NCBI GenBank assembly: GCA_025361335.1 | Contig: JANYAK010000002.1 | Span: 1,060 to 65,059 of the forward strand | Reading direction: 5' to 3' | DNA: 64,000 bases | DNA from: Coriobacteriia bacterium | GTDB taxonomy: Bacteria > Actinomycetota > Coriobacteriia > Anaerosomatales > PALSA-660 | Notes under the pieces: generated by a model | Told to the model about the DNA's origin: nothing | Databases searched by the model: none | Seen by the model: only the letters and a program-made list of their open reading frames with translations | Shown: piece after piece, positions 25,590-44,649 of the stretch | How the letters are laid out: every line of letters begins with the position of its first letter | How positions within the stretch are numbered: position 1 is the stretch's first letter | Translations under genes and position numbers: made by a program

Positions 25590-25662
25590 CGGCAGCAATC
25601 GCGGCATGAGCCGCCGCGGCACGAACGAAGAGGCGACCACGACACGAAGGAGCGGAAAGACG

Positions 25663-26172
25663 ATGTCAGACGCAGCGATGGAAGCGGTATTGGCGGCACC
25701 GCGCAAGAAGAAGCTGACCATGGTCGTGATGAGCGGAGACATGGACAAGCTGTTCGGCGCTTTCATCATCGCCACCGGCGCCGCGGCGATGGGCATGGAA
25801 GTGATCATGTTCTTCACGTTCTGGGGCCTTCGCGCCATCAAGAAGGATGTCCGGACCGGCCAGACCTTCTTCGGCAAGATGCTCGGCCTCATGTACGGCG
25901 GGGACATCTCGAAGTCCGATCCGTCCAAGTTCAGCTTCGGCGGCATGGGCCGGTGGATGTTCGGGAAGATGATGGGTGCGAACAACGTCGCCAAGCTCAC
26001 CGAGCTACGCGACCTTGCCGTGATGCTGGGCGTGGGCCTGTATCCGTGCCAGATGTCCATGGACGTCATGGAGATCCCCGCAGAGTCGTTCATCGACGGC
26101 GTCAAGCCGGCCGTCGGCGTCGGCTTCATGCTCGGCGAGGCCGAGGAGTCCGGGATCCAGTTCTTCATCTAG
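25663..26172 (+). CDS. DsrE2/DsrE3-like sulfur-relay protein (DsrE/DsrF/DrsH-like, DrsE_2 family)
   Basis: ATG at 25663 follows GAAGGAGCGG. KLTMVVMSGDMDKLFGAFIIATGAAAMGMEVIMFFTFWGL...LYPCQMSMDVM...FI matches this family, including the conserved Cys. The upstream part of the 208-aa track ORF overlaps arsR and is discounted. Confidence 0.85.
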   Translation: MSDAAMEAVLAAPRKKKLTMVVMSGDMDKLFGAFIIATGAAAMGMEVIMFFTFWGLRAIKKDVRTGQTFFGKMLGLMYGGDISKSDPSKFSFGGMGRWMFGKMMGANNVAKLTELRDLAVMLGVGLYPCQMSMDVMEIPAESFIDGVKPAVGVGFMLGEAEESGIQFFI

Positions 26173-26228
26173 ACAGCCGGGCGCGCCGCGCCCGCGCCAC
26201 GACGAGCCACCGACCGAAAGGAACGCAC

Positions 26229-26471
26229 ATGTCCGACGAAATCAAGCCCGATCTGGAGCTCGACCTGAAGGGTCTGCTCTGCCCCCTGCCCATGGTCAAG
26301 GTGTCCCAGAGGATCAAGGACGTCCCGGTGGGCGGAGTCATCCGTGCCGTCGCGACCGACCCCGGCGCCATGGCCGACATCCCCGCATGGGCCAAGTCGA
26401 CAGGCAACGAAGTCGTGTCGGCCGGGAAGGTCGGCGGCGAGTTCGTGTTCCTCGTCAAGCGCGTCAAGTAG
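26229..26471 (+). CDS. tusA: TusA/SirA-family sulfurtransferase
   Basis: 80 aa. LDLKGLLCPLPMVK carries the diagnostic CPxP active-site motif. Embedded in the longer track ORF 25953..26471. Confidence 0.9.
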   Translation: MSDEIKPDLELDLKGLLCPLPMVKVSQRIKDVPVGGVIRAVATDPGAMADIPAWAKSTGNEVVSAGKVGGEFVFLVKRVK

Positions 26472-26493
26472 CCGGAAGGACGAACCGAAGTAC

Positions 26494-27219
26494 ATGGAAA
26501 CCTACCTGCAGATCACCTCGGTGTGGGGTGTGTACCTCTCCATCGCGGTGTTCGTCGCGGGGATGGCCTGGCGCATCTGGGAATGGAGCACGACGCCCCG
26601 TTCCCCGATACCGCTGGGCATGTTCCCCAAGCCCAGAACGGGCACCGGGCGGTTCTTCAAGATGTTGAAGGACACGTTCATCGCTCCGCAGTCGTTCCGG
26701 ATCGAGCCGTGGATGTGGCTCGCCGCCATGGCGTTCCATATCGCCGCGCTCGGTGCGTTCGTCGGCCACCTGCGGCTGATCCACGAGTTCCCGTTCCTGC
26801 CCTCGCTGCTGGGCGAAGCCGGCATGAACACGTTCGCCGCCTGGTCCGGGTCGATCGCCGGCGTGCTGATGCTGGGCGCGATCCTGTTCTGGATCGCGCG
26901 GCGCACCACGGGCCCGTACAAGACGATCTCGGTGCCCGAGGACTACCTGCTGCTCGCGCTGCTGTTCGGCGTCGTCATCATGGGCGACCACATGCGCTTC
27001 GTGTACGGCTCGATCGTGCACGCCGCGACGTATCGCGAGTGGTTCCTGAGCCTGCTGGCGTTCAAGCCGGCGTTCCCCGTCGAGCTCACATCGAGCAACG
27101 TCGCGTTCTCGCTGGGGACGCACATGCTGTTCGTCGACCTGTTCCTGATCTACTTCCCGTTCAGCAAGCTCGTGCACACCGTGGGCGCGCTGGCATCCAA
27201 CTACGTGAGGAGTGAGTAG
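26494..27219 (+). CDS. NarI/DsrM/HdrE-like membrane di-haem cytochrome b (quinol-interacting subunit)
   Basis: From METYLQITSVWGVYLSIAVF... About 5 TM helices with conserved His pairs (AFHIAALGAFVGHLRLIH; GDHM...IVH; GTHM...KLVH). Adjoins the DsrK-like gene with a 2-nt gap. Confidence 0.8.
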   Translation: METYLQITSVWGVYLSIAVFVAGMAWRIWEWSTTPRSPIPLGMFPKPRTGTGRFFKMLKDTFIAPQSFRIEPWMWLAAMAFHIAALGAFVGHLRLIHEFPFLPSLLGEAGMNTFAAWSGSIAGVLMLGAILFWIARRTTGPYKTISVPEDYLLLALLFGVVIMGDHMRFVYGSIVHAATYREWFLSLLAFKPAFPVELTSSNVAFSLGTHMLFVDLFLIYFPFSKLVHTVGALASNYVRSE

Positions 27220-27221
27220 CC

Positions 27222-28520
27222 ATGGCTGACGCCACAACGACCGAAGCCACCGAGCTCGCCACCCTCGCGGGTGTCATCGACAAGAAGATGACGCGCCAGC
27301 TCAAACAGTATTTGGACCTCTGCGCTCGCTGCGCGATCTGCAAGGACGCGTGCCACCAGTACGTGGCGACGCAGGACGTGAAATACCTGCCCGCCTACCG
27401 CGCGGAACTGATCCGGCGCATCTACAAGAAGTACTTCGACAAGACCGGCCGTTTCGTGCCGGCGCTGTACGAAGGCCGCGATCCCGACGAGAACCTGCTC
27501 GACGAGCTCTACGAGACGACGTACGCGTGCACCGGCTGCCGACGCTGCATGTACTTCTGCCCCTTCTCCATCGACACGCAGTTCATCCTGTCGGTGGCCA
27601 AAGCGATGCTGATCGCGGCGGGCAGGGGCAACGAGATGCTCGGCCAGCTCGCCGACGCCGCCATCTTCAAGGGCGACAACATGGAGATGTTCCACGACGT
27701 GATCGTGGACGGCTTCAAGGACGTCGAGAAGGAGGTCCAGGAGATCACCGGCGACCCCACGGCCGAGATCCCCGTCGACAAGCAGGGCGCCGACATCCTG
27801 TACGTCGCGCTCGCCGGGGCGCACTCCATCCGGCCCGCCGCGGTCATCTTCCACGAAGCCAAGGAGTCCTGGACGCTGTCACTGTTCGAGGCCGCCAACT
27901 ACGGCTTCTTCTTCGGCGACCCCGTCAAGGCCCGCAAGATCGCCGACCGCTTCATGGACGAGGCCGTGCGCCTCGGCGTGAAGGAGGTCGTGATCACCGA
28001 GTGCGGTCACGCGTATCGCGTCGCGGAGATCTTCCACGAGGCCTGGGCGGGCAAGAAGCACCCCTTCAAGGTGACCCACGTGCTCGAGAAGATCGACGCC
28101 TACATCAAGGACGGCCGCATCAAGGTCTCCAAGGCAATCGAGTTGCCGATCACCTATCACGACCCCTGCCAGATCGGTCGCAACGGCGGCATCTTCGAGC
28201 AGCCGCGCGACATCGTGAAGGCCATCAGCAAGGACTTCCGGGACATGACGCCCAACCGCCAGGAGCAGTGGTGCTGCGGCGGCGGCGGCGGGATCGTGGC
28301 CATCGACGAGATGAACGAGTTCCGCCTCAAATCCGGTATGAAGAAGGTCGAGCAGATCCGCGCGACGGGCGCCAAGATCGTGGCCAGCCCCTGCGAGAAC
28401 TGCAGGCTCCAGATGGAGGGGCTCGACGAAGTGCACCAGCTCGGCGTCCGCATCGCGGCGATCATGGACTTGGTCGTCGAGTCCATGCCGCTGAAGGGGC
28501 GCGACGCCGCGAAGGTCTGA
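27222..28520 (+). CDS. DsrK/HdrD-like Fe-S (CCG-domain) heterodisulfide-reductase-type catalytic subunit
   Basis: 432 aa. Two ferredoxin-type motifs (CARCAICKDAC, CTGCRRCMYFCP) plus two CCG-type Cys-rich regions (ITECGHAY...DPCQIGRNGG; WCCGGGGG...SPCENC). Confidence 0.85.
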   Translation: MADATTTEATELATLAGVIDKKMTRQLKQYLDLCARCAICKDACHQYVATQDVKYLPAYRAELIRRIYKKYFDKTGRFVPALYEGRDPDENLLDELYETTYACTGCRRCMYFCPFSIDTQFILSVAKAMLIAAGRGNEMLGQLADAAIFKGDNMEMFHDVIVDGFKDVEKEVQEITGDPTAEIPVDKQGADILYVALAGAHSIRPAAVIFHEAKESWTLSLFEAANYGFFFGDPVKARKIADRFMDEAVRLGVKEVVITECGHAYRVAEIFHEAWAGKKHPFKVTHVLEKIDAYIKDGRIKVSKAIELPITYHDPCQIGRNGGIFEQPRDIVKAISKDFRDMTPNRQEQWCCGGGGGIVAIDEMNEFRLKSGMKKVEQIRATGAKIVASPCENCRLQMEGLDEVHQLGVRIAAIMDLVVESMPLKGRDAAKV

Positions 28521-28581: not shown

Positions 28582-28600
28582 TTCGCGTATGCTGTCGGTC

Positions 28601-30316
28601 ATGGCTCACACACCCGACATGCGACCCTCCCGGCGACCTGCGGCACGCCGAAGCGCGACGGCAGGCAGGCGGCCATCGCGCGCGGTGAGGCTGGCGATCA
28701 CGCTCGGGTTCTTGGTCGCCCTCTTCGCGGCGGCCGCGTGGGGTCTGTCCCGCTTCGCCTCCGGCGCCGCGCCCGCTCCCGCGGCGGTCGTGAAAACGAC
28801 CGCCACCGCCTCCCCGATCAAGCCCGCGAAGCCCGCCATCGACGCCGCTCTCGAGGCGGCACGCAGCTCCATCGTGTTCGGCTCGTTCCTTGGGGACGGG
28901 AACCGCCGCACGTACGGCCAGGGGCCGGCGCCCAAGAGCCTCAACCTCATCTGGAAGGTCAAGCTGGGTTCCGGGAAGACACGGCGCAAGTTGGACGACA
29001 AGCCGGTGTCGTGGGCGGGCAACGGCTGGACGGGCCAGTGCACCGTGGTGAACGAGGCCGGCCGCGACTACCTTTTGGTAGGGGCGTACGACCACAACCT
29101 GAGGCGCATCGACGCGCTGACGGGGAACGTCATCTGGACGTCCCTGTTCGACGATGTCATCAAGGGCACGAACACGGTCTTCGCCAACCCGCATCCCACG
29201 GGCGACGAGGATCGCATCATCGTGGCCGCCGGGTCCCGCCGCGGATCGGACTACAAGGTCGGCGACCCCCGGATCGCACCGTTCCGGGCGGTCTCGTTCG
29301 CCACCGGCCGGGAGCTGTGGCGCTTCCCGATACCCAAGACACCGCAGTACAGCCAGGATGTCGACTCCTCGTCGCTGCTGGTCGACGACACGCTCTATGT
29401 TCCTGTCGAGTCCGGCTACGTCTACGGGCTCGACCCCAGCCGAACCCAGCCGTGGCTCGACTGGGTCTCGCCGGTCCAGCGGTACCGATCCCCCGAGCTG
29501 TGGACCGCGGCCGACGTCGCGACGCACAAGGACATCGGTGGCGCGAACATCGCCATCGAGGCTTCCGTCTCTCGCATCGGGTCGACCCTCTACCAGCCCT
29601 CGGGCGCGGGGCACATCTACGGGCTGCGCCTCCCTGACCTCAGGGTCGTGTGGGACTACCGCACCGGGTCCGACATCGACGGGACCGCGGCCGTGACCCG
29701 CGACAACAAGCTCGTCTGCACCATCGAGAAGCAGTACATCGCCGGGCACGGCGGCGCCATGATGCTCGATCCGAGCAGACCGCCCGAGCAGGCGACCATG
29801 TGGTACTTCCCGACCCCGGACCACGGCATCGGCGAGTGGGCCGGCGGCAGCGTCGGGTCCGCGGCCATCAACGACGAGACGAACAAGGATGGTTCCCGGC
29901 CGGCGCTGGCCGCGTTCACGTCGGTGGACGGCAACCTCTACGTCGTCTCGCAGGACACGATGGCGCCCAAGAAGGTGCCCCGCTTCGACGGCACGGGTGC
30001 CTACCCCACGCCGGTGGAGGTGTTCCACGGCTCCATCGGCGGATCGATCTCGACCCCCGCATTCGTGGGCGACACGATCGTCGCGGCCGGTTACGGCAAT
30101 GCGGTCGAGCTGTTCCGGGTCGTGTACACCCCGGCCGCCCAGGGCGGATCCGGCGTCGAACTTCCCGCGCGCGACGGCAGCCGGTGGAAGGTGGCCGTCA
30201 AGCGCGTGGCGAAGTTCAAGGCGGGAGCGGGGTTCGAGGCCACTCCCCTCGTCTGGAAAGGCCGCGTCTACATCGGGTGCCGGGACGGCTGGCTGTACTG
30301 CCTCGGCGACAAGTAG
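28601..30316 (+). CDS. Membrane-anchored PQQ-like/BamB-like beta-propeller repeat protein
   Basis: Arg-rich N-tail, one TM (AVRLAITLGFLVALFAAAAWGL), then repeated ...G.V.W......(Y.G)...D..LY motifs ending GRVYIGCRDGWLYCLG. The start may be 28589 or 28601. The 988-aa track ORF upstream part is in a different frame from dsrK and is discounted. Confidence 0.75.
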   Translation: MAHTPDMRPSRRPAARRSATAGRRPSRAVRLAITLGFLVALFAAAAWGLSRFASGAAPAPAAVVKTTATASPIKPAKPAIDAALEAARSSIVFGSFLGDGNRRTYGQGPAPKSLNLIWKVKLGSGKTRRKLDDKPVSWAGNGWTGQCTVVNEAGRDYLLVGAYDHNLRRIDALTGNVIWTSLFDDVIKGTNTVFANPHPTGDEDRIIVAAGSRRGSDYKVGDPRIAPFRAVSFATGRELWRFPIPKTPQYSQDVDSSSLLVDDTLYVPVESGYVYGLDPSRTQPWLDWVSPVQRYRSPELWTAADVATHKDIGGANIAIEASVSRIGSTLYQPSGAGHIYGLRLPDLRVVWDYRTGSDIDGTAAVTRDNKLVCTIEKQYIAGHGGAMMLDPSRPPEQATMWYFPTPDHGIGEWAGGSVGSAAINDETNKDGSRPALAAFTSVDGNLYVVSQDTMAPKKVPRFDGTGAYPTPVEVFHGSIGGSISTPAFVGDTIVAAGYGNAVELFRVVYTPAAQGGSGVELPARDGSRWKVAVKRVAKFKAGAGFEATPLVWKGRVYIGCRDGWLYCLGDK

Positions 30317-30523
30317 GCCTCCACTTTCGTCGCGTCAGTACGCTTCCGGCCGCTTCCCGCACGGCGAATTGCCGGTTTCGCCCAGTTCTGTCTGGGGGGA
30401 CAATGGATAGTGGCGGTTGCGTGGTGTGATGGTGCCCGCCGGACGTGGTAGCCTCTCGGTGTTGTTCGCGCCGTGCGGAGGCCGAAGATGCGTGCATGTG
30501 CATCTTGCGACGACGGGAGCGCG

Positions 30524-31993
30524 ATGCGGATCGGACGCTTCATCGGCGGGGCTGTCGCAGCCTTGGCATTGTCGGTCGCTGTCACGTTGGGTGGCTGCGC
30601 CGCACCGAAGGCGACCCCGACGGCTCAGCATCCGTCCATCCCCGCGGGCAAGACCTGCGCGGACTGCCACGCCAAGGATCACACGCACCTTCCTCCCTAC
30701 GTGGGCGCGTGCGAGACGTGTCACGTGCTCACGTCCTGGCGCATCGTCGTCTACAAGCACAAGAACCCGGACCTCGACATGGGCATCCACGGAGTCATGG
30801 GATGCCGCCGATGCCACACCGAGGGATCCCCGGTGCTCCCGACCACGTGCCCCGCGTGTCACACCGCTCCGCACGCTGGGTGGCAGGACTGCGCGAAGTG
30901 CCACCAACCGCTCACGTTCCTTGTGAGACGGCCGCCTCCGCCAGGACACCTGTCGCTCCTGGGTGGGCACTCGAACCTGACGTGCCTCGAATGCCATGCG
31001 ACGCCCCAACCGCCCGCCACGCCCCGGACCTGCGCCTCGTGCCACGGCACCCATCACGGCGGGCTCGCCGGGTGCGAGCGCTGCCACGATCCGGCGCGAG
31101 GGTGGACGCCGCTCGCCTTCGACCACAACGTGTTCTTCCGGCTCACCGGCATCCATAAGACCCTCGCGTGCGGCCGATGCCATCCGGACGGGAGATTCGC
31201 CAACACGCCGATCCGCTGCGTGAGTTGCCACGGGGTCAGGCATGGCGGCCTGACCAACTGCGCGCGCTGCCACACCACGGCGCGATTCAAGCCGTCCACG
31301 TTCCGTCACTCGCGCGTCTTCCCGCTGTCGCCGGGACCCCATGCGCGCCTTAGGTGCTCGCGATGCCATCCCCGCAACCTGTACGCGCACGTCACAGGCC
31401 GCAACTGCGTCGGATGCCACGGCCGCGTCCACGGCATGAGCACGTGCACGGCGTGCCACACAAGGACGGGCGCGGTCGCCTCGAACTGGAACCACTCGAT
31501 CTTCTTCGCGCTGACCGGGGCCCACAGGTCGCTCGCCTGCAGCGCATGCCACGGCAGTCCGTTGCGCCCGGCCGCCGGCACGCGTTGCGTCTCGTGCCAC
31601 GGCACGAAGCATGGCGGCGTGACGAACTGCGACTTCTGCCATACCACGACGTCGTTCGTGCCCATCCACGCGATCACCCATCCGAACGGCATCCCGCTCG
31701 CGGGGCATCACGGTTCGCTCTCAGGGTGCGCGGAGTGCCACCACACGCCCCTGAACTTCGTCTCGGCGCCTCGCGCCTGCGTGGAATGCCATGCGGGCGA
31801 CGTGCCGCATGTCGGCCCTTCGGACTGCGTCAGATGCCACTACCCGGTGGCGTCGTTCGCGACTCTGCACTTCACCCATCCCTCGGTCACGCCGCACACC
31901 TCCACCCGGTTCCCGTGCGACTTCTGCCACGACTTCCACAACTTCACAGTTCCTCGCAGCGTGATCTGCGTTATGTGCCACCCGGCCTTCTAA
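30524..31993 (+). CDS. Lipoprotein multihaem cytochrome c with 22 CXXCH motifs
   Basis: Signal peptide MRIGRFIGGAVAALALSVAVTLGG|C (lipobox). I counted 22 CXXCH motifs in ~465 mature residues, arranged largely as repeated three-motif modules (e.g. CGRCH-CVSCH-CARCH; CSRCH-CVGCH-CTACH; CSACH-CVSCH-CDFCH). GGGAG RBS before the ATG at 30524. Confidence 0.9.
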   Translation: MRIGRFIGGAVAALALSVAVTLGGCAAPKATPTAQHPSIPAGKTCADCHAKDHTHLPPYVGACETCHVLTSWRIVVYKHKNPDLDMGIHGVMGCRRCHTEGSPVLPTTCPACHTAPHAGWQDCAKCHQPLTFLVRRPPPPGHLSLLGGHSNLTCLECHATPQPPATPRTCASCHGTHHGGLAGCERCHDPARGWTPLAFDHNVFFRLTGIHKTLACGRCHPDGRFANTPIRCVSCHGVRHGGLTNCARCHTTARFKPSTFRHSRVFPLSPGPHARLRCSRCHPRNLYAHVTGRNCVGCHGRVHGMSTCTACHTRTGAVASNWNHSIFFALTGAHRSLACSACHGSPLRPAAGTRCVSCHGTKHGGVTNCDFCHTTTSFVPIHAITHPNGIPLAGHHGSLSGCAECHHTPLNFVSAPRACVECHAGDVPHVGPSDCVRCHYPVASFATLHFTHPSVTPHTSTRFPCDFCHDFHNFTVPRSVICVMCHPAF

Positions 31994-32128
31994 GCGTGCG
32001 CCGGACCGCCGGACGACGAGCGGCTCCGCCCACTCGGCGCGGCGCTTGCATACGGAAGGCTGCGCCGATACTGATGGTAGTGTGAATGTGTGCTCGACCT
32101 GCAATCGTTCCCATTGGAGACGCGACCT

Positions 32129-33622
32129 ATGAGCAGGATCCTCTTCGTCACTCCGCCCTACACGTGCTGGGGCGTCCAGACCATCGGCAACTGGCCGCCG
32201 CTGCAGCTGGCCTATCTCGCCGGCGCCGCACTCAAGGCCGGGCACGAGGCCAAGATCTTCGACGCGATGAACAAGAAACTCGGCTTCGACGAGATCCGGG
32301 CGCAGATCGAGGACTACCGGCCCGACTTCGTCATGAGCCTCGACTACCTGCCGGTGACCGGAGCGATCAGCACCGCGACCGTCCCCGCCGCGCTGGAGGC
32401 CCTCGCCGTCGCCAAGCAGGTCGACCCCACCGTCATCACGATGATCGGTGGCCCGCATCCCACGTTCATGTACGACGAGATCCTGCGCGACCCGGCGAAC
32501 CACGCTGACTACGTCCTGCGCGGAGAAGCCGAGGAGACGCTGGTGGACCTGATGGCCACCCTGCCGAGCGGGTCGCCGGACGCCGTCCCCGGCATCGCCT
32601 TCCTGCGCGACGGCGACGTGATCGCGACTCCCCTGCGACAGCACATCGCCGATCTCGACACGCTCGAGGTCGCATGGCACCTCCTCGACTGGGAGGACTA
32701 TCACTACAACGTCGAGCCCTGGGGCCGCATGGCGTCGGTGCTGACCTCGCGCGGCTGCATGATGGGGTGCGCCTTCTGCAGCCAACGCCTGTTCTGGCGC
32801 GGAGACTGGCGCGCGCGCGACCCCAAGGGTGTCGTCGACGAGATGCGTCTCCTGATCGAGAAGTACGAGGTCGAGTTCATCACGCTCATCGACGCGTACC
32901 CCACGAGGGACCGTGAGCGCTGGATCCAGCTGCTGGATCTGCTCATCGAGGCCGACTTGGGCGCTCACCTTCTCATCGAGACGCGGGTCGAGGACATCAT
33001 CCGCGACGCGGATATCCTCCCCAAGTACCGCCAGGCCGGCATCATCCACGTCTACCTCGGCGCGGAGACCAGCACCGACGAGATGCTCAACAGCTTGAAC
33101 AAGGGGACCACGATCGACCAGAACAAGCAGGCCATCGACCTGCTGAAGGCCAACGACATCATGATCGAGGCGTCGTTCATGATCGGCTTCCCCAACGAGA
33201 CGTGGGAGACGGTCAAGGCGACCGCGAACGAGGCGATCCGGCTGAACCCCGACATCGCGGTGTTCCCCGTGATCACCCCGATGCCGTTCACGCCCCTGTA
33301 CGAGGAGATGAAGGACCGCATCCGCGTCTTCGACTACTCGAAGTACAACCTGGTCACGCCGATCATCGAGCCGTACGCGATGTCGCTGGACGACATCACC
33401 ATCGCGCTCGGGCGCTGCTATATGACCTTCTACGCGAACAAGATGACCGAGATCCTGGCGCTCCCGGAAGGCTTCAAGCGCCGCTACATGCTGAGCGCGA
33501 TGAAACAGATGATGAAGGACTACGGCGAGCACTTCGACTTCCTCGGCATCGGCATGGCCAAGATGTCCGCGATGCCCAAGAAGATGGGCGAAGCGATGAA
33601 GGGTCGTACGCCGTCCGAGTAG
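32129..33622 (+). CDS. B12-binding-domain radical SAM protein (class B rSAM), substrate unknown
   Basis: N-terminal cobalamin-binding-like Rossmann segment (ILFVTPPY...LAYLAGAALKAGHE.KIFD), then the radical SAM cluster motif SRGCMMGCAFCSQ (CxxxCxxC). The start at MSRIL is preceded by GGAGA. Confidence 0.85.
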   Translation: MSRILFVTPPYTCWGVQTIGNWPPLQLAYLAGAALKAGHEAKIFDAMNKKLGFDEIRAQIEDYRPDFVMSLDYLPVTGAISTATVPAALEALAVAKQVDPTVITMIGGPHPTFMYDEILRDPANHADYVLRGEAEETLVDLMATLPSGSPDAVPGIAFLRDGDVIATPLRQHIADLDTLEVAWHLLDWEDYHYNVEPWGRMASVLTSRGCMMGCAFCSQRLFWRGDWRARDPKGVVDEMRLLIEKYEVEFITLIDAYPTRDRERWIQLLDLLIEADLGAHLLIETRVEDIIRDADILPKYRQAGIIHVYLGAETSTDEMLNSLNKGTTIDQNKQAIDLLKANDIMIEASFMIGFPNETWETVKATANEAIRLNPDIAVFPVITPMPFTPLYEEMKDRIRVFDYSKYNLVTPIIEPYAMSLDDITIALGRCYMTFYANKMTEILALPEGFKRRYMLSAMKQMMKDYGEHFDFLGIGMAKMSAMPKKMGEAMKGRTPSE

Positions 33623-33679: not shown

Positions 33680-34519
33680 CTACCCCTCGGCGCCGCCGAT
33701 GTAGCCGGCGTGGATGGTGTTGAACACGGTCGGGATGCCCACGAGGCAGAAGAGCGCGATCGGCATGGCGATGATCGCGAACCACGCGAGCCTCTCGCCC
33801 TTCCAGTGCCGCATGAAGCGCAGATGCAGATAGATCGCATAGATGAGCCACACGATGAGACTCCACGTCTCGATCGGGTCCCAACTCCAGTAGCGACCCC
33901 ACGACTCGTTCGCCCAGATCGCGCCTGTGGCGATCATGATCCCCCACAGCAGGAAGCCGGCGAGCACGAGACGAGCGATGAGGCCCTCGACGACCTCTTG
34001 CTCCGGCATCCGCTCCAGGCGCTTGGCCCACTTCCCGCTCGTCGATCGCTGCCTTATAACGAACACGACCGCGAAACCGAACGACGCCGCGAAGGCCGCG
34101 AAGGCCACGTTCGCGAAGGCCACATGGATGAACAGCCAGTAGCTCGCGAGAGACGCCGTTATCGGGAAGTCGGCCTTGGATGCGAGCATCGAGCCGCCAA
34201 GAAGGAGCACCGCCACCGGCATGATCCCTATGCCCGTGGCGTGGAGACGGGGGTTGCGCCATGCGGCGATCACGAAGAAGGCCACTGTGCACAGCGTGAG
34301 CGCGTTGGCGACCTCGTAGTAGCCGATGTAGGGGCCATGGCCCAGACGGGCCCATCGCACGCCCAGCGCGACGATCTGGGGCACCAGACCCAGCGCCGAG
34401 ACGAGCACCGCCCGACGTGTGAGCACCTCCCTGTTCAGGGCGACACCGAACACGAACATCCCCGTCGCGACCACATAGAACGTGAGCGCCACCCACATGA
34501 ACACGATCTCCAGAGTCAC
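33680..34519 (-). CDS. ccsA: Cytochrome c biogenesis System II haem-handling protein CcsA/ResC
   Basis: 279 aa polytopic protein with the WWD-type motif WANESWGRYWSWDPIETWS and flanking conserved His residues. Confidence 0.92.
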   Translation of the reverse strand: MTLEIVFMWVALTFYVVATGMFVFGVALNREVLTRRAVLVSALGLVPQIVALGVRWARLGHGPYIGYYEVANALTLCTVAFFVIAAWRNPRLHATGIGIMPVAVLLLGGSMLASKADFPITASLASYWLFIHVAFANVAFAAFAASFGFAVVFVIRQRSTSGKWAKRLERMPEQEVVEGLIARLVLAGFLLWGIMIATGAIWANESWGRYWSWDPIETWSLIVWLIYAIYLHLRFMRHWKGERLAWFAIIAMPIALFCLVGIPTVFNTIHAGYIGGAEG

Positions 34520-35952
34520 GATACGCTCCCCTTCCCATCACTGCCGAGCGCGCGACGCAGTTCGCGTTCGACCTCGCCGCGACTGGTCGGCACGTTTCTC
34601 CACAGGCGCAGGGCGACGTCGAGCCTCACGCCCTCGGACCCCTCTGTGGCGGTCACAAGGACGAGTTGCTGGCGCGCCAGCGTCGTCACGCTCAGGCCGA
34701 CGAGCGCCACGACCATCACAGCGTAGATGACCGGTATCGTCGGATCGTCCACGAGCGACAGCCACGAGAACCATCCGATGTCCACCAGCCGGACGGCGCC
34801 GCCCTCGGGCAGGTCGACCGACTCGCCCTTCCGCACGATCCCGTCGAACAGCAGACCGCCGTCCGCCGAAGTCACATGCAGCCGGGCAGACGGCCGCTTC
34901 GGTATCCACTCACCAAAGCCCTGTCCCGCCCGATCGAGTGGCACGGTGACCGACATCTTCATCAGTATCCTGCCGGCCGAATCCCGACGCGACAGGAGGC
35001 CGATGGGGCTCGTTCCCTCCGTGGCCGTCTGGGAGAAGTCCACCAGCCGGATGACGCGCCCGCTCTCCGCCCCGGCCTTGTCTTGGAAGCTGAGTGTCGC
35101 CGACAGCCCGCACGCGGGGGCGTTGATCGCCAGCGATCCAGTGTGGAGCATGTGGTTGGGGTAGATGCGCTGGGTGACCACGGCCTCACCCGCACCGTCC
35201 AGGACCGAGATCGTCGGTACCGCTCCGCGGTCGATCCCCCCGGTCTTGTAGTCGGGATCGAAGGAGTCGAGGCGGATGCTGCGCGTCGCCACCCCTCCAT
35301 AGTGCCACGGCCCCGAGTTGGACAAGGCGTACGACGCCGATACGTCGGCAAGCGTCTGCCCGACCGCCACTGGCATCATCCCCTCCGAACGCACCAGCTG
35401 CCCGACGAGCACCGCGGCGATCAAAGCGACCAGTGCCCAGTGGAAGACCGCACTGCCCCACGCGGACCAGGCCGGGGACACGGCCGTCAGCATGTCCCCC
35501 CGGCGTCTCATCCTGATGCCGAGGCGCTCCAGCGCTCCCGATGCGATCTCGAGCGCGCGCTGACCCGAAAGGGCTGGATCGCATACGATCCCGAGGTCGG
35601 GTGCCTGGATCGGCGACAGCGGATCGGCAGCGGCGGCCGCGGTCAGCGCGCGCGCCCTGAACCGTGCGACCTTCGCGCGCCTCCACGCGCACGCGCTCGT
35701 GCACATCGCCAGCAGGAGCGCGGCGGCCCAGAATACGGGCGCCGTGAATGCCTGATGGAGGCCGAGCCACCTCACGACGGGCGAGAAGGAAGGGTTGGTC
35801 GCGTCCCATGCAATGACGGAGGAACTCGAGTCCGCACCCTGGGTGACGACCGTCGCCACCATCGACCAGACTCCTATGAACAGCAGGAGTCCGACGGCGG
35901 TACGCATCGACGCGAGGAACCCGACGACGACGCGCCATGCCCTGCCGATCAT
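34516..35952 (-). CDS. resB: Cytochrome c biogenesis protein ResB/CcsB
   Basis: From MIGRAWRVVVGFLASMRTAVGLLLFIG (typical ResB N-terminus), with a large extracytoplasmic loop and a C-terminal TM. ATGA overlaps occur at both gene junctions. The track ORF N-terminal extension is discounted. Confidence 0.88.
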   Translation of the reverse strand: MIGRAWRVVVGFLASMRTAVGLLLFIGVWSMVATVVTQGADSSSSVIAWDATNPSFSPVVRWLGLHQAFTAPVFWAAALLLAMCTSACAWRRAKVARFRARALTAAAAADPLSPIQAPDLGIVCDPALSGQRALEIASGALERLGIRMRRRGDMLTAVSPAWSAWGSAVFHWALVALIAAVLVGQLVRSEGMMPVAVGQTLADVSASYALSNSGPWHYGGVATRSIRLDSFDPDYKTGGIDRGAVPTISVLDGAGEAVVTQRIYPNHMLHTGSLAINAPACGLSATLSFQDKAGAESGRVIRLVDFSQTATEGTSPIGLLSRRDSAGRILMKMSVTVPLDRAGQGFGEWIPKRPSARLHVTSADGGLLFDGIVRKGESVDLPEGGAVRLVDIGWFSWLSLVDDPTIPVIYAVMVVALVGLSVTTLARQQLVLVTATEGSEGVRLDVALRLWRNVPTSRGEVERELRRALGSDGKGSVS

Positions 35953-36587
35953 TTGACCTCGCCTATGGCTTTGACACTCACCGAGTCGACGACCCACACA
36001 CCCTTCGGGTTCTGCACGACCGTGTAGATCGTCTCGTACGTGGCGGAATACGGACCCGCCACGGTCTTGCCGACGTCTTTGATGGAGACGTAACGGTACG
36101 TCCATTTCTCCTTCGCTGGAACGAGTGTGCTCGTGGAACCGGTGCTCGGGTTGCCCAATACGAGGGAGTCGAGCGTCTGATCGATGACCCTCGACTTCTG
36201 GAGATTGAGCTGGACATACGAGTCGACGCGCACTTCCTGTCCGGAGGACATCGTGGGCGTCGCGACCGTCGATTGGGCGATCCGATAGGCGTACGAGGTC
36301 CAGTCGAGGTACGAACGGATCGCCTTGTCCGGCGTGGACAGTACCCACGGCTTCGGCGAGTTCTCCAGCGCCTGGCGGGAGATGATCACCGTCGACGCCG
36401 GTCCGGCCATGCCCTTGCCCGCCGTGGTGCTCGCGTTGCCGACACCGGCACCGAGGCCCTTAGGCGCGCTCGAACATCCGGGCAAGAGCAAGAGCGCCAA
36501 GAGCAGCGGCGCCACTGCGCCGAGGGCCCCTGCGTGTCCAGCGGACGAGTGATTCCTTCTGAGAGAACCGTACAGTGCCCTCACCAT
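35949..36587 (-). CDS. Hypothetical lipoprotein co-transcribed with resB-ccsA
   Basis: Signal peptide and lipobox ...APLLLALLLLPG|CSS. No recognisable catalytic motif and no further Cys. The start at 36587 is uncertain (weak RBS spacing). Confidence 0.6.
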   Translation of the reverse strand: MVRALYGSLRRNHSSAGHAGALGAVAPLLLALLLLPGCSSAPKGLGAGVGNASTTAGKGMAGPASTVIISRQALENSPKPWVLSTPDKAIRSYLDWTSYAYRIAQSTVATPTMSSGQEVRVDSYVQLNLQKSRVIDQTLDSLVLGNPSTGSTSTLVPAKEKWTYRYVSIKDVGKTVAGPYSATYETIYTVVQNPKGVWVVDSVSVKAIGEVK

Positions 36588-36689: not shown

Positions 36690-36715
36690 GGGGGCGGGCA
36701 TTGCTGCCCGCCCCC
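36690..36715 (-). terminator. Strong GC hairpin downstream of the giant cytochrome gene
   Basis: GGGGGCGGGCA-TTGC-TGCCCGCCCCC, perfect 11-bp arms, ~45 nt after the stop at 36761. On the minus strand it is followed by GTTCGTTCATAA. Confidence 0.6.
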
Positions 36716-36760: not shown

Positions 36761-39700
36761 TCACTTCCAGAACGGGACCTCGGACCACGTGCCGCCGCCG
36801 ACCGCTGTGCGACCAGCAACGGGGTTGTCCGCGACACCCTCAGAGGTGCCACCGGTGTCGGAGTGCGTGAGACCGGCGGACGTGCAAGCGGTGCAGTTGT
36901 TCTGGATCGCCTCACTAGAATACAGGGCGTTGGGGCTCGTGTCGGGAAGCCACTCGGAACCTGTGGCCGTGTCGTCCCAGAGTCCCCACTTCGTCCCGTT
37001 GACACTGTCGTTCGCCTGGAAGGCCGTAGCCGGACCGATCACGAGCTCCTTGAGCGCCGTGCCGGTGGCAGCGATCTTCTCGAGATGGGATGAATACGTC
37101 TTGGCGCTGTTGTTCACGACCACACCCGCGACGGGGTCGACCTCGTTGGCGCCGTTGGTGGTGCCGTTCGGGATGACCGTGCCGACCTGGGCGTAGGTAC
37201 CCGAACCGCCACCCTGCCAGCCCCAGTTACCGCCTGGAACTGCCATGTTCGGGCTGGTGCTGAGCCGGTCGGAACCACTCGACAACCAGTAGTTCGGCAG
37301 GTACCACTGCACCTTGTACGGCGCCGGGTCGGACTCGTACACCAGCAGGCGGGGACGCTTCCAGCCGTGCGGGATGGCGATGTGGCACGAGACGCAGTTG
37401 GCCTGGCCCGTCACCATGTCCGCGTGGTGCTCCATGTGCGCCTCGTTCGAGAAGCCCATGTAGTTCATGTTGTTGCTGCGGAACCCGCGACCATTGCCTT
37501 CGATGCCGAGGCCCTGGAACGAGTTCGTGAGCTTGTGGCACTTCTGGCAGATGAAGCGGCCGGTCTTGACGCCCGCCGAGTAACCGTTGCTGGGATTGGC
37601 CGTCGCCTTGTAGAAGCCACCAGGAAGGACCGTGGCGACGGATGCCGGCACACCGGCGACCGTCTCGGTAGTGATGTTGTCCGGACCCATGTTCACGTAC
37701 GAACCGTACTTGCTGTAGTACGGGTTCGCTGTGCCGCGCGTGGTCTCTATGCTGCGCATGCCGGTCGGGTCGAAACTGGTGATCTCAGCCCGTGTCCAGT
37801 CGTCCGGGAAGTTCGGATCGAGGCCTACCGCGCCCACGTTGGCGCCCTGAGGGCCCATGCTCGAATCGAGGTTGGTGTGGCAGTCCTGGCATCTGACGAC
37901 ACTGCCCCATCCAACGTCCGTGCGGATCATGGACGGTGTGAGACCCTTGCCCGCCAGCGCGGCCGCAGGTGCGTCGGTCGGGTTGAGCGAATAGGAGCCG
38001 TCGACCGTGCCATTCAGTGCCAAGCCCTTGCTGTCGCTCCAGAACACGCCGGACGTCGGAAGCGGCCACTCCTGCGTGATCGTTTCCTCGGCGCTGCTCT
38101 TGACGACGACGCCTTCAGTACCGTTCCACAGGGTCTTGGCTCCGATGGTCGGGAAGCCCTGAGCGTTGTGGCCTGATGCCACCGGACCGGTCTTGGAGCC
38201 GAACGCGTGCGGCGCGTACGTCCTGCCGTTGTGGCAATCCGCGCACTCGGCGGTACCCGCCGCCAGCAGCGGCGTCATCTCGCCGCGGAGGTAGGACGTC
38301 GTGTGACAGAAGCACCCGAGTGCCGTATGCACGGTCGGGAGATCGGTACCGTGACACGTGGTGCAGGCGGAACTGTTCGCGCCTGTGGCGTTCCTGTGGA
38401 CGAACCCGTGGAAGGTCTCCAGGTCAGGATGGCATGTCCCGCATGCGATCTGGGTGGGCACGACTCCAGGCGTCGTATGGCATACCGCGCAACCGGGAGG
38501 ATCATCGCCCGTCAGGTGCAGGAGACTCTTGTCGCTGGAGTTGTGGCACGCCGTGACAAAGCAGGAACCCGAGATGGCATGTCCCACGTTGCCTGCGGCG
38601 TGAACCGTAGCGTAGCTGATATGGCAGGACTCGCACGTGGCGTTCGCGCCGTCGACGACGTTATCGGTGAGCGTGACGCTCACGAAACGGTTGGCGGTCG
38701 GCGCGTGGCACGCCGCGCAGGTCTTGTGGACGGTCGGTGTGACCAGAGAGGTGCCGTGGCACGCAGCCTGGGTGCACTTGAAGTCGCCAGTGCTGGTGCT
38801 CGGGATCACCGCGTGGTTACCGTGCGGGCCAAGGGCGCCATGGCACGTGATGCAGTTGCTGCGCGGCGTGACCCCGTTGGCGTGGCACACTCGGCAGCCT
38901 GACGTCGTGGCCGTCTTCGCGGGCGGGCCCTCGTGGATCGTCGCGAGGTCACCGTCGGCGTGGCAACCTGACTGGGTGCATGTCAGGGCAGGCAGCGCGT
39001 GAGCGACGGTCGTACCAGCATGCGGGTACGAGTCGATGGCACCGGTCGTGTAGAAGTGGCAGTCGATGCACGAATCTGATCCGGCCGAGATGGCTGCCAT
39101 GACCTGCGGATTGGTGCTCTCGTGGCACGTGATGCAGTTCAGGTACGGCCCGGGGCCGACCGGCCAGCGATAGTGCTCCTGCGTGAGCGACGAAAGGTGA
39201 CAGCCGCTCTGTGTGCAGAACCTGGTCGTGGAGACGTGCCAAGGCATGTCCGTGAGGGTGACGGTGAAAGAGACCGTGTGGTGCGGTGTCTCAGTATTGC
39301 CGGCCGCGTCCACGGACCAGAACTCGAGGATATGGACATCGAGGCCGTTCGTGGTGACCAGCCCGCCGGTCCCCGGGAGTCCGTCGAGTATCCAGTTGAT
39401 CCTCGCCACGCCCGAGCCGCCGAGGTTGTCCGTCGCGGTCAGATGGATGATGGCTGTGAGGAAGTACCTGGGTACGACGTCGGATGTCGTGGTCGGGGCG
39501 ACGGTGTCGCTGCCGATCGGGCCCGCGAGATAGAAGACAGGGCCTTCGAAGCGGTACGTTGCCGACAGTGAGGCTATGACTTGGTCCTTCTCGGCCGCAT
39601 TCGCCGTGAAGAAGTGGGTTCCGTTCCTCAAGTTGAGGAATCGGAACACCGGCGTCGAGGCGACCGGATCGAGCGAGACGTCGTAGTAGGAGATGCCCTC

Positions 39701-40066
39701 TGGGCGGAACGCGGGCAGATTCGCCAAGATGTAGGCTCTCTCCCCCTCGTTCGCCGTGTAGAAATGCTCTCCGGTCGCCAGATTGAAGAAGCGGTAGACC
39801 GGCATGTTGTTGCGGGGGTTGTCCGTATCGACGTACCAGCCGACCCCCTCGAAGCGGTAGGACGCGGAGAGGGTCGCTATGACCTGGTCCTTCTCCGCCG
39901 CATTCGCCGTGTAGAAGTGCGATCCGTTCGAGATGTTGAAGAACCGATACACAGGCAGGATGCCTGCCGCGTGCGCGACGCCTGGAAGGCCCAAGGCCAA
40001 CACCAGGACAGCAACGAACGCGCCGAGCCACAGGGCCCGGCTGGGCCGAACAGATTCTCTACTCAT
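36761..40066 (-). CDS. Large secreted multihaem cytochrome c with N-terminal DUF5648-type repeats and an Ig-like domain
   Basis: Start MSRESVRPSRALWLGAFVAVLVLALGLPGVAHA (signal peptide; GAGGGAG RBS). Three repeats of PV(Y/F)RF(F/L)N...G.HF(Y/F)TAN..E. Ig-like GSGVARINWILDG...FWSVDAAGNTE. 13 CXXCH, 4 CX4CH (CTQSGCH x2, CTQAACH, CFVTACH) and one CFCH. Confidence 0.9.
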   Translation of the reverse strand: MSRESVRPSRALWLGAFVAVLVLALGLPGVAHAAGILPVYRFFNISNGSHFYTANAAEKDQVIATLSASYRFEGVGWYVDTDNPRNNMPVYRFFNLATGEHFYTANEGERAYILANLPAFRPEGISYYDVSLDPVASTPVFRFLNLRNGTHFFTANAAEKDQVIASLSATYRFEGPVFYLAGPIGSDTVAPTTTSDVVPRYFLTAIIHLTATDNLGGSGVARINWILDGLPGTGGLVTTNGLDVHILEFWSVDAAGNTETPHHTVSFTVTLTDMPWHVSTTRFCTQSGCHLSSLTQEHYRWPVGPGPYLNCITCHESTNPQVMAAISAGSDSCIDCHFYTTGAIDSYPHAGTTVAHALPALTCTQSGCHADGDLATIHEGPPAKTATTSGCRVCHANGVTPRSNCITCHGALGPHGNHAVIPSTSTGDFKCTQAACHGTSLVTPTVHKTCAACHAPTANRFVSVTLTDNVVDGANATCESCHISYATVHAAGNVGHAISGSCFVTACHNSSDKSLLHLTGDDPPGCAVCHTTPGVVPTQIACGTCHPDLETFHGFVHRNATGANSSACTTCHGTDLPTVHTALGCFCHTTSYLRGEMTPLLAAGTAECADCHNGRTYAPHAFGSKTGPVASGHNAQGFPTIGAKTLWNGTEGVVVKSSAEETITQEWPLPTSGVFWSDSKGLALNGTVDGSYSLNPTDAPAAALAGKGLTPSMIRTDVGWGSVVRCQDCHTNLDSSMGPQGANVGAVGLDPNFPDDWTRAEITSFDPTGMRSIETTRGTANPYYSKYGSYVNMGPDNITTETVAGVPASVATVLPGGFYKATANPSNGYSAGVKTGRFICQKCHKLTNSFQGLGIEGNGRGFRSNNMNYMGFSNEAHMEHHADMVTGQANCVSCHIAIPHGWKRPRLLVYESDPAPYKVQWYLPNYWLSSGSDRLSTSPNMAVPGGNWGWQGGGSGTYAQVGTVIPNGTTNGANEVDPVAGVVVNNSAKTYSSHLEKIAATGTALKELVIGPATAFQANDSVNGTKWGLWDDTATGSEWLPDTSPNALYSSEAIQNNCTACTSAGLTHSDTGGTSEGVADNPVAGRTAVGGGTWSEVPFWK

Positions 40067-40148
40067 CTGGCACTCCCTCAACCGTCGCAACGTATACTTG
40101 AACAGACCCCTTTGGTAAACACCACGCCCTTCGGCGTGGACGTTCCGG

Positions 40149-41991: not shown

Positions 41992-42340
41992 TGGTGGAGG
42001 CGCGGAGAATCGAACTCCGGTCCACGACACACACTCGGGAAGCATCTCCAGGCTCAGTCGCCGGTTGTTTTCTCGGCTCGGACGACACCGGTGACCCGCG
42101 TGTCCGATGCCCAGGAGGATTGCATTCCCTTACGGCATACCTCCGTCAGCCGTTCAGTAGTCCCCTGCATGACGTCGTATCCGGTACCGGGGACGTGTAC
42201 CGGGCGGCGTCGCGGCCTATCTAGGCAGCGAGAGCGAGATCATTGTTGGCGCTTGCGCGTCTTTTCCCCTGTTTAGCGAGGCGAGGAGACCTCGGCCTGC
42301 TTCTTCCGTCATACGTATCGTGTCGAATCCAGTCGCCCCC
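41992..42340 (-). ncRNA. ssrA: tmRNA (SsrA)
   Basis: Minus-strand 5' end GGGGGCGACTGGATTCGACACG and 3' end CGGAGTTCGATTCTCCGCGCCTCCACCA form a tRNA-Ala-like acceptor with G3:U. An internal tag reading frame ends ...GCC AAC AAT GAT CTC GCT CTC GCT GCC TAG (ANNDLALAA*). Confidence 0.92.
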
Positions 42341-43947: not shown

Positions 43948-44418
43948 CTAACGCCCCTTCTGCCGCTCCCGTAACGCCCGGTCGGCGTCACGCTTGGCGT
44001 CACGCTCGGCGATCGCGTCGCGCTTGTCGTAGAGCTTCTTGCCGCTGGCGAGCGCCAGCTCCACCTTCACCAGGTTGCTCTCGTTGAAGTAGAGCCGTAG
44101 GGGGACGAGTGCGTAGCCCTGCTCCTTCGTCTTGCCGATGAGATAGCGGATCTCCTTGCGGTGCAGCAGCAGCTTGCGCGACCGGTCGGTCTCGACGTTG
44201 CCGCGGTTGCCGTGGGAGTAGGGCGCGATATGCAGACCGTGCAGCCACACCTCCGCGCGCCGCACCGTCGCGAACGTCTCACGAAGGGACGCGCCGTTCT
44301 CACGCAAGGACTTCACTTCGGTGCCCGAGAGCGCGATACCGGTCTCGAAGCGCTCCTCCACGAAGTAGTCGTGAAAGGCCTTCTTGTTGTTCGCGATGTT
44401 CTTCTCTTCGCGAGCCAT
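43948..44418 (-). CDS. smpB: SsrA-binding protein SmpB
   Basis: From MAREEKNIANNKKAFHDYFVEERFETGIALSGTEVKSLR...LLLHRKEI. 156 aa. The track ORF upstream extension is discounted. Confidence 0.93.
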   Translation of the reverse strand: MAREEKNIANNKKAFHDYFVEERFETGIALSGTEVKSLRENGASLRETFATVRRAEVWLHGLHIAPYSHGNRGNVETDRSRKLLLHRKEIRYLIGKTKEQGYALVPLRLYFNESNLVKVELALASGKKLYDKRDAIAERDAKRDADRALRERQKGR

Positions 44419-44649
44419 GACCGCGATCCCATCCATTCGTGTCGTCCTCGCCGCCCCCGGCGGTGTCCCATTGTAGCCGAGCGCGCCGTGGAGTCCCGCG
44501 AGCGCCACGATCTGCGGTCGCCTTGCGGCGCGTGAGAGAACCCTCTCCGCAGTCTCACGCCTCGCTCATGTCCCCACCCGATGCTACCTCCAGGACGGCC
44601 CCGCGCCGGAAGGTCGTTCGGACCGCGAACCGATACCTTGGAGGCAAGA

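Follow-up and report, generated by a model that had tools for sequence, protein, structure and literature searches.

A secreted cytochrome with 18 haem motifs, a putative glycan-binding module and a conserved gene cassette in a Coriobacteriia bacterium

Few proteins are known to take electrons through the thick wall of Gram-positive bacteria, and they come mainly from Thermincola and Carboxydothermus. For the Actinomycetota we know of nothing at the protein level. We have studied a stretch of 64,000 nucleotides (nt) from a member of this phylum, a Coriobacteriia bacterium (GenBank assembly GCA_025361335.1, contig JANYAK010000002.1, positions 1,060–65,059), which will be called the window. On its minus strand, at positions 36761–40066, there is a single intact gene which codes for a secreted cytochrome of 1101 amino acids (aa) with 18 haem motifs. 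This protein, its family and the genes that follow it are the subject of the present work.

The closest described systems are OcwA (TherJR_2595) and the wall-linked TherJR_1122 of Thermincola potens, together with the surface cytochromes of Carboxydothermus ferrireducens. They share with our cytochrome a monoderm host, secretion, a multihaem nature and a proposed role in carrying electrons through a thick wall. However there is no detectable sequence relation with OcwA, which is present in the PDB and yet was not matched. OcwA has nine haems on a core similar to NrfA and OTR, whereas here there are 15 haem sites in c7-like units and an unrelated domain with three more. The portions of the Thermincola and Carboxydothermus reports considered here mention no glycan-binding anchor module, nor do they bear out S-layer-homology domains on OmhA of C. 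ferrireducens. A second group of comparable proteins are the class III cytochromes of Desulfovibrio (tetrahaem c3, nine-haem cytochrome c and the 16-haem Hmc), which are also made of small haem-dense units in tandem; the dodecahaem GSU1996 of Geobacter, with several c7 domains, is another example of this type. The class III cytochromes differ in that they are periplasmic, belong to diderm cells and have neither the anchor, nor the spacer, nor the C-terminal domain found in our family. Their motifs are also different: here CX4CH is regularly the first motif of a tri-haem unit (units 1–4) and one unit has CX1CH.

The overall kind of this protein is already known, since Gram-positive envelope cytochromes with many haems and haem arrays of c3/c7 type have both been described. 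Compared with the literature that we have found, the new features are the presence of glycan-binding anchors on envelope cytochromes (DUF5648, interchangeable with CWB2 and with F5/8-type-C domains), a regular tri-haem unit which starts with CX4CH together with a contracted CX1CH throughout the family, the three-haem C-terminal domain, and a cassette formed by a cytochrome and its private ResB/CcsA genes, which is found in several phyla and in multiple copies per genome.

We consider it fairly probable that this is a secreted 18-haem cytochrome, anchored to glycan, which moves electrons across the wall of a Gram-positive bacterium. Sec would export the protein unfolded. The System II proteins ResB and CcsA, encoded two genes downstream, would then attach haem at all 18 sites, including CX4CH and CFCH. 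The N-terminal DUF5648 propeller would retain the cytochrome on a glycan of the cell envelope, with the PKD-like domain as a spacer. Electrons would hop along a wire of five c7-like tri-haem units with 15 close-set haems. If each haem adds about 1 nm, a value reportedly found in GSU1996, this wire would be some 15 nm long, a size similar to that of a Gram-positive wall. The business end, which passes electrons to or from an external partner, would consist of the conserved three-haem domain together with the variable tail. In this way respiratory electrons would travel through the wall to an extracellular acceptor, for instance Fe(III), or in the opposite direction. In this family there is a design open to testing: an anchor that binds glycan, a spacer, a wire of 15 haems and, at the end, a conserved domain.

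The gene, its domains and its haem motifs

The features of the gene are the following:

36761–40066, minus strand: cytochrome gene, 1101 aa, 18 haem motifs, stop codon included (open reading frame and motif count; identical protein in two independent assemblies)
40073–40079, minus strand: Shine-Dalgarno-like GAGGGAG, 6 nt 5' of the ATG (read from the sequence)
39968–40066, minus strand: Sec-type signal peptide, aa 1–33 (positive charges at its start, then a hydrophobic core, with AHA ahead of the predicted cleavage site)
39497–39967, minus strand: DUF5648 domain with three repeats of about 50 aa, aa 34–190, a probable glycan-binding anchor (Pfam, repeat alignment, repeat hidden Markov model, AlphaFold2, literature)
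39251–39496, minus strand: PKD/Ig-like beta-sandwich, a putative spacer, aa 191–272 (NCBIfam match below its cut-off, high model confidence, Foldseek)
38147–39241, minus strand: predicted 15-haem wire of five tandem tri-haem c3/c7-like units, aa 276–640 (unit alignment, Cytochrome_C7, family profile, site conservation)
37292–38146, minus strand: conserved three-haem C-terminal domain, aa 641–925 (invariant columns, alignment of the module across phyla)
36761–37291, minus strand: variable tail rich in Gly, Asn and Trp, aa 926–1101 (BLAST map, comparison of homologue tails)

The open reading frame which holds the gene extends over 36761–40090 and the starting ATG is at 40066. Its GC content at third codon positions is 0.83, like that of the neighbouring genes. 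An identical protein is found in the metagenome-assembled genome (MAG) GCA_043724725.1 of NCBI and in Logan assemblies of sequencing runs, which are independent assemblies. A similar leader peptide is present across the cytochrome family; AlphaFold2 (AF2) models a helix at aa 7–33 and cleavage probably takes place after AHA. A previous sequence-only reading of the window had proposed the order Sec signal, repeats, Ig-like domain and haem region, and the reading frame, Pfam and AF2 agree with it. The Ig-like domain (aa ~191–272) has an NCBIfam match of OmpL47 type with an expect value (E) of 8.7e-8, yet under the cut-off. It is modelled with a predicted local distance difference test (pLDDT) of 94–97, and Foldseek relates it to PKD/Fn3-like modules with template modelling scores of 0.6–0.79 on the target; the nearest ones belong to secreted clostridial and vibrio enzymes. 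When the full-length model was submitted to Foldseek only PKD/Fn3 modules were matched, through this same domain.

A recount of the haem motifs gives exactly the figures of that reading: 13 CXXCH, four CX4CH (at aa 284, 363, 431 and 502; CTQSGCH twice, CTQAACH and CFVTACH) and one CFCH (at aa 585). They contain 36 of the 38 cysteines of the protein; the other two form a CTAC at aa 1058/1061. In 20,000 shuffles of the sequence, which preserve its composition, the expected numbers are 0.058 CXXCH, 0.056 CX4CH and 0.057 CXCH, to be compared with 13, 4 and 1 observed. The CXXCH and CX4CH counts are far above chance. The lone CFCH is not significant by shuffling, so that comparative evidence is needed for it.

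Such evidence is found both inside the protein and in its homologues. When the tri-haem units are aligned, units 1–4 have the arrangement CX4CH-CXXCH-CXXCH and unit 5 has CXXCH-CFCH-CXXCH; CX4CH and CFCH share the register of canonical CXXCH motifs in the sibling units. In an alignment of 50 homologues, 43 have CX1CH at site 585 and four have CX2CH. Site 502 is CX4CH in 36 of them, and CX5CH, CX3CH or CX2CH in the others. Sites 363 and 431 are CX4CH in 30 homologues each, with CX2CH as the alternate. The trailing His is retained in every case. Structural disulfides would not swap with CXXCH and retain the His, so that CX4CH and CFCH are to be taken, on these alignments, as genuine haem sites, as had been suggested for CX4CH in the sequence-only reading. 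Haem is predicted to occupy all 18 sites. It would be very improbable that the cysteines of CX4CH and CFCH serve instead in structural disulfides or bind metal, leaving a protein with 13 haems: a lone CXCH is within chance for this composition and a single biochemical precedent of CX1CH is cited in the literature consulted, but such pairs would hardly fall in the CXXCH register of sibling units, nor interchange with CX2CH in the same alignment columns with the His always present.

CX4CH occurs in tetrahaem cytochrome c3. It is included among the published haem-binding motifs (PMC11492766), as is the contracted CKCH, according to the part of PMC7096707 which deals with it. The latter is found in a tetrahaem cytochrome of Kuenenia stuttgartiensis (Ferousi et al. 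2019, as cited in that same part), another case of C-X1-C-H in a multihaem protein. However the protein and the lineage are unrelated, and the CX1CH of our family keeps to a single position, immediately ahead of the C-terminal domain. Its presence throughout the family makes it a test bed for the way in which System II handles contracted and expanded motifs.

The wire is, by its sequence, of the c3/c7 class. Pfam finds Cytochrome_C7 (PF14522) with 27.1 bits, above the cut-off of 24.8. A profile of the family compared with PDB sequences matches Hmc and nine-haem cytochrome c with E between 4e-8 and 4e-7, and MtrF with 9e-5; all these matches come through the wire region only, and that of MtrF reflects generic haem motifs. 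The MtrC/OmcA/MtrF family PF22113 gives E=0.29 and 11.1 bits, well below its cut-off of 30. There are 20 His outside the motifs within aa 276–925, which would suffice for a mostly bis-His ligation.

A long linear haem array might also suggest a protein which polymerises into an extracellular filament like OmcS, OmcE or OmcZ, and in Parvivirga, a cultured relative, pili-like appendages have been seen only with ferrihydrite present (PMC9686372). We give very little credit to this idea, as no filament cytochrome appears among the matches of either the single sequence or the profile with PDB sequences. Also the subunits of cytochrome filaments are compact, unlike a multidomain protein of 1101 aa with a binding module and a spacer.

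The N-terminal module and its possible role as anchor

The sequence-only reading described three DUF5648-type repeats of a wall-binding type. Their identity is clear: Pfam finds DUF5648 (PF18885) with E=1.8e-34 and 119.3 bits, to be compared with a cut-off of 25, and a hidden Markov model of the repeat detects three units in the cytochrome and none elsewhere in the window. The number of domains has to be corrected. AF2 shows three beta-beta-alpha-beta units and the published fold is (beta3-alpha)3, a single three-bladed beta/alpha propeller (PMC11299179), so that the repeats form one domain and not three independent wall-binding units. The wall-binding label also needs a correction: the literature connects DUF5648 with the recognition of glycans, through the O-antigen-targeting toxins BSAP-2 and BSAP-3 as well as through GH70 enzymes, rather than with peptidoglycan. 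In those toxins and in the GH70 glucanotransferases the same Pfam family is C-terminal, whereas here it is N-terminal on a cytochrome.

In this lineage DUF5648 behaves as a portable terminal module of extracytoplasmic redox and wall-active proteins. Outside the cytochrome family (P0072, P0048, P0092 and P0042 in our set) we find it at the C-terminus of multicopper oxidases of 1450 aa in Coriobacteriia MAGs, in three stretches of a SpoIID-like protein, and at the C-terminus of a different, MtrC-like multihaem cytochrome (P0092), which is a second and independent fusion of DUF5648 with a cytochrome. The fusion in the window also recurs. There is a full-length homologue with 51% identity (P0002), several other proteins with DUF5648 and a cytochrome show 33–37% identity across more than 80% of the length, and metagenomes contain the repeat-cytochrome fusion in at least 10 clusters at 90% identity. 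In the literature searched we have found no published description of it, and the author of the sequence-only reading was not aware of one either.

The homologues and related loci are almost all from MAGs labelled Coriobacteriia, Anaerosomatales or Actinomycetota, and the isolate labels of several related MAGs indicate groundwater, spring or biofilm. The OPB41/Anaerosomatales lineage and its relatives are widespread in groundwater and sediments. The host of the cytochrome would be an uncultured bacterium of the Actinomycetota with high GC and a Gram-positive type of envelope, similar to Coriobacteriia or Anaerosomatales. Two Anaerosomatales have been cultured; they have Gram-positive walls and 17–18 multihaem cytochromes, and for Parvivirga, which is one of the two, the reduction of Fe(III) is obligate (PMC9686372).

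Attachment to the wall, which had also been proposed, gains indirect support because in some homologues the module is replaced by CWB2 and because the cultured relatives are Gram-positive. CWB2 is an established anchor of clostridial surface proteins to wall polysaccharides. Four homologues (P0047, P0052, P0056 and P0163) have three CWB2 repeats (E~1e-45) precisely in the N-terminal position of DUF5648. The cytochrome of the window itself has no Pfam match with CWB2 (PF04122). It has in common with the CWB2-anchored surface proteins of Clostridia an N-terminal module with a triple repeat, but DUF5648 has a different fold. In an alignment of 58 homologues we find six with DUF5648, three with CWB2 and most of the others without any recognised binding module. 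Larger members of the family, with 36–37 haems, end in a lectin-like domain of F5/8-type-C. These observations support a role of DUF5648 as a glycan-binding retention module by analogy; that the ligand is the wall of the producer itself is what we infer from the CWB2 replacement.

DUF5648 could instead bind a foreign or matrix glycan, such as the surface of a partner cell, an exopolysaccharide or the organic matter that coats minerals. The cytochrome would then be a conductive adhesin, either released or embedded in a matrix. The DUF5648 domains of BSAP-2 and BSAP-3, which are C-terminal, target the O-antigen of other cells, and the lectin-like ends of the larger relatives would have a place in such a protein. 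Neither a sortase signal nor a membrane anchor is present in its sequence, and Parvivirga produces an extracellular matrix that is dense, as well as clusters on ferrihydrite (PMC9686372). We think nevertheless that an adhesin is unlikely, since the presence of CWB2 at the same position points to attachment to the cell's own wall. Furthermore many members of the family have no N-terminal binding module at all, which indicates that binding is accessory and not the core function.

The C-terminal domain and the cassette downstream

The C-terminal domain (aa 641–925) is the most conserved part of the cytochrome and defines the family. Its invariant contexts are CQDCH..GPQG, CQKCH, SNEAHMEHHAD and CVSCHIAIPHGWKRPRLL..DPAPY; the consensus of the family is C.DCH..GP(H/Q)G, C.KCH, SN.AH..HH.D and CV.CHIAIPHGWKRPRLL..DPAPY. 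It has three haem motifs, all of them canonical CXXCH, and the motif count shows neither CXXCK nor a motif with a long spacer. The widely spaced CQDCH, CQKCH and CVSCH in a stretch rich in Gly and Asn had been noted in the sequence-only reading, and the last 462 aa do contain 12.6% Gly and 6.9% Asn. The domain is rare: among 1.84e9 cluster representatives there are 253 with E≤1e-3 and 20 with E≤1e-30. No solved or named relative was found with phmmer, with two profiles against PDB sequences, in Pfam or in NCBIfam. In particular phmmer and the profiles detect no relation with NrfA, HAO, OTR, MccA, OcwA or MtrC in the PDB; the best match of the end-module profile described below is NrfA with E 0.002, but a per-domain E of 0.55. 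An AF2 model of aa 600–1101 (pLDDT 58.8) gives zero Foldseek matches in the PDB. Paired_CXXCH_1 (PF09699/TIGR01905) has a weak match at aa 883–909, with 20.2 bits for a cut-off of 20.6; in the proteobacterial relatives described below this domain is recognised clearly.

The tail (aa 926–1101) is common to close homologues only, as it is apparent in the BLAST map, with the exception of the terminal CXXC (aa 1058/1061), which is found in 49 of the 50 homologues; the tail closes with P.WK. In the window this Cys pair lies at about 36884–36895. It is kept across phyla, as CXXC in Actinomycetota and with spacings from C-X7 to C-X40-C in Proteobacteria, and it is usually preceded by W...(N/D). With such variable spacing a disulfide fits better than a haem site; a metal site is another possibility for the pair.

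Downstream of the cytochrome we find a group of genes that the sequence-only reading had not described, a conserved cassette with a dedicated ResB/CcsA pair:

36690–36715, minus strand: GC hairpin GGGGGCGGGC-AGCAAT-GCCCGCCCCC, 46 nt past the stop codon, no U tail (free energy -33 kcal/mol, z=-5.8)
35949–36587, minus strand: lipoprotein of 212 aa with lipobox LLPGC, between the cytochrome gene and ResB (same position in 24 related loci)
34516–35862, minus strand: ResB/CcsB-like System II synthase subunit, 448 aa (Pfam ResB E=7e-30; sole copy in the window)
33680–34519, minus strand: CcsA/ResC-like System II synthase subunit, 279 aa (Cytochrom_C_asm E=4.7e-35; intact tryptophan-rich WGRYWSWD)
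32090–33622, plus strand: BchE-like B12-binding radical S-adenosylmethionine (SAM) gene, convergent with CcsA (TIGR02026 413.6 bits, under the cut-off of 481)

The hairpin is unique within the window. A comparable one is present right after the stop codon of the cytochrome in all 10 related loci tested (L003, L004, L006, L007, L011, L013, L018, L021, L023 and L027), and the stem is often identical in sequence. This points to a conserved element that separates the cytochrome from its maturation genes, whether terminator, attenuator or stabiliser of the mRNA. The standard terminator scan missed it because it has no U tail; a scan for sigma-70 promoters found nothing. The 212-aa lipoprotein has a mean column identity of 67% over 12 loci and in Actinomycetota its gene always comes after that of the cytochrome and before ResB. 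Pfam has no family for it and the PDB no relative, even with a profile of 12 sequences. CcsA is also matched by TIGR03144 with 175.6 bits, slightly under its cut-off of 187.6. The radical-SAM gene adjoins the cassette in 19 loci of Actinomycetota and is also close to it in one locus of Deltaproteobacteria (L056) and in one of Nitrospirae (L072); by analogy, a role in the modification of haem or of the cytochrome is conceivable.

The order cytochrome, hairpin, lipoprotein, ResB and CcsA is kept in the P0002 locus. Among the closest related loci 26 could be assessed, and ResB is found downstream in 24 of them. Overall, 50 of 69 assessable loci have the pair or one of its members on the same strand, no more than 3.5 kb downstream. 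Three MAGs hold two cassettes each (L004/L016, L005/L008 and L006/L037), with ResB proteins 39–43% identical and CcsA proteins 56–68% identical, although MAG bins can be mixed. In another locus (L012, 3724–9212) two cytochrome genes of the family are found in tandem before one ResB/CcsA pair. From these arrangements the adjacent synthase is probably the cognate one of the cytochrome. If it proves to be so, ResB/CcsA may be what the heterologous expression of such cytochromes needs.

Part of this system reaches beyond the Actinomycetota. The peptide pattern CH[IV][AG][IV]PHGW was scanned in 185,579 species genomes, with 418 confirmed loci. Only Actinomycetota have the complete C-terminal domain. 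A module formed by its last ~100–150 aa, with C.DCH..GPHG, C.KCH, C..CH.A.PHGW..PAPY and the Cys pair, is also found at the end of 11-haem Paired_CXXCH_1 cytochromes in Gamma-, Beta- and Alphaproteobacteria, where it contains C..CH[IV]A[IV]PHGW. This end module is present as well in proteins from MAGs of Deltaproteobacteria, Nitrospirae and Chloroflexi. For these relatives we find no names beyond "hypothetical" or "cytochrome c3 family protein". The proteobacterial 11-haem genes are directly followed by a short ResB-like and a CcsA-like gene, for example in MAGs of Thiohalomonas (L049, 6435–10236), Polaromonas (L064, 5823–10325) and Rhodocyclaceae (L047, 5829–10325 and 13188–15793). In the last one the System I genes CcmF and CcmG lie 3–5 kb further downstream, so that the System II pair is supernumerary there. 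The end module, the terminal Cys pair and the downstream synthase pair are what these proteins, such as those of Thiohalomonas denitrificans and of Polaromonas MAGs, have in common with our cytochrome. The identity is about 33% over about 100 aa; they differ by the absence of DUF5648, PKD-like domain, CX4CH and CX1CH, and by another N-terminal haem region.

A multihaem gene next to its own CcsBA-type synthase, with several paralogues per genome, is also found in Wolinella succinogenes (NrfA/NrfI and MccA/CcsA1), as described in the relevant part of PMC7096707. There the special substrate motif is known (CXXCK and CX15CH), whereas here no atypical motif is common to all cassette members. According to the same part of that paper, a private synthase beside a multihaem gene is a signature of atypical catalytic haems. 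From this it might be thought that the C-terminal domain is the active site for a soluble substrate, for instance a nitrogen or sulfur oxyanion, that the wire feeds it with electrons and that ResB/CcsA assembles a special haem for catalysis, in the manner of NrfI for NrfA and of CcsA1 for MccA. The sequence-only reading had ventured that the C-terminal region may be catalytic or turned towards a substrate. Such an enzyme would agree with the high conservation of the domain, with its invariant His-rich SN.AH..HH.D and CH.A.PHGW, and with the fact that proteobacterial relatives retain their own ResB/CcsA even beside CcmF and CcmG. We consider it improbable: the three motifs of the domain are canonical, its conserved His are enough for bis-His ligation and it has no likeness in sequence or fold to NrfA, HAO, OTR, MccA or OcwA. 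A comparison of motifs and tails has found no atypical haem motif common to all cassette-bearing members. Separately, atypical motifs were considered as the reason for a private synthase; as a general explanation this does not hold, since the proteobacterial members with the cassette have CXXCH only.

A wider proposal is that the C-terminal module and ResB/CcsA form a self-contained cassette which has spread across Actinomycetota, Pseudomonadota, Nitrospirota and Chloroflexota. The private synthase would be substrate-specific and would install a non-standard attachment beyond the reach of the housekeeping system, for instance at CX1CH or at a site not recognised by us. The lipoprotein and the radical-SAM protein would be further maturation factors, and DUF5648 a new class of wall anchor for extracellular electron transfer in Gram-positive bacteria. 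This proposal is tentative and we would rather doubt it in its full extent. The cassette could mark iron or electrode respiration in uncultured OPB41/Anaerosomatales bacteria.

Returning to electron transport across the wall, we infer extracellular electron transfer, as well as the orientation in the envelope and the physiological acceptor, from the features described. That the tail is variable, and that relatives end in lectin-like domains, speaks for a C-terminus which faces outwards. A C-terminus close to the membrane would equally fit, with the conserved domain tightly co-inherited with a membrane-tethered lipoprotein. A partner on the membrane side could be another cytochrome encoded 5 kb away:

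30473–31993, plus strand: lipoprotein cytochrome of 506 aa with lipobox and 22 CXXCH (c7-type and c3-type Pfam matches; homologue nearby only in L012)

This lipoprotein is not conserved with the cassette. Several points weigh against electron transport across the wall, besides the fact that the function is deduced entirely from sequence and genomic context. Proteases secreted by Gram-negative bacteria are often provided with DUF5648, which is also found in toxins directed to the O-antigen of other cells; it need not bind the wall of its producer. AF2 models the haem regions poorly, with a pLDDT of about 40–65 and no haem included, so that the geometry and length of the wire are predictions only. 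Neither the 22-haem lipoprotein nor the DsrMK-like genes described in the next section are present in the P0002 locus, and the cassette has no quinol dehydrogenase among its conserved genes. Two of the closest loci (L009 and L022) are without the ResB/CcsA pair, which may also be, when the window alone is viewed, simply the general synthase of the organism.

Other features of the window

Upstream of the lipoprotein cytochrome, on the same plus strand, there are genes for a DsrE_2-like protein, a NarI/DsrM-like membrane cytochrome b and an HdrD/DsrK-like protein with CCG iron-sulfur motifs (25546–28520). They are followed by a reading frame for a PQQ/BamB-like beta-propeller (about 28600–30316). 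These three genes and the beta-propeller may form a membrane redox module.

The stretch 24–40 kb has a GC content of 0.63–0.68, compared with about 0.70 in 16–24 kb. The tmRNA (transfer-messenger RNA) gene ssrA (41992–42340) and smpB (43948–44508), both on the minus strand, adjoin the cluster. A genomic island inserted at the tmRNA was considered and rejected, as the window contains no repeat of the tmRNA 3' end and no integrase is found among the neighbouring reading frames scanned. The Rfam matches in the window are the tmRNA and six transfer RNAs only; the genes of the latter are clustered on the minus strand at 1652–2318.

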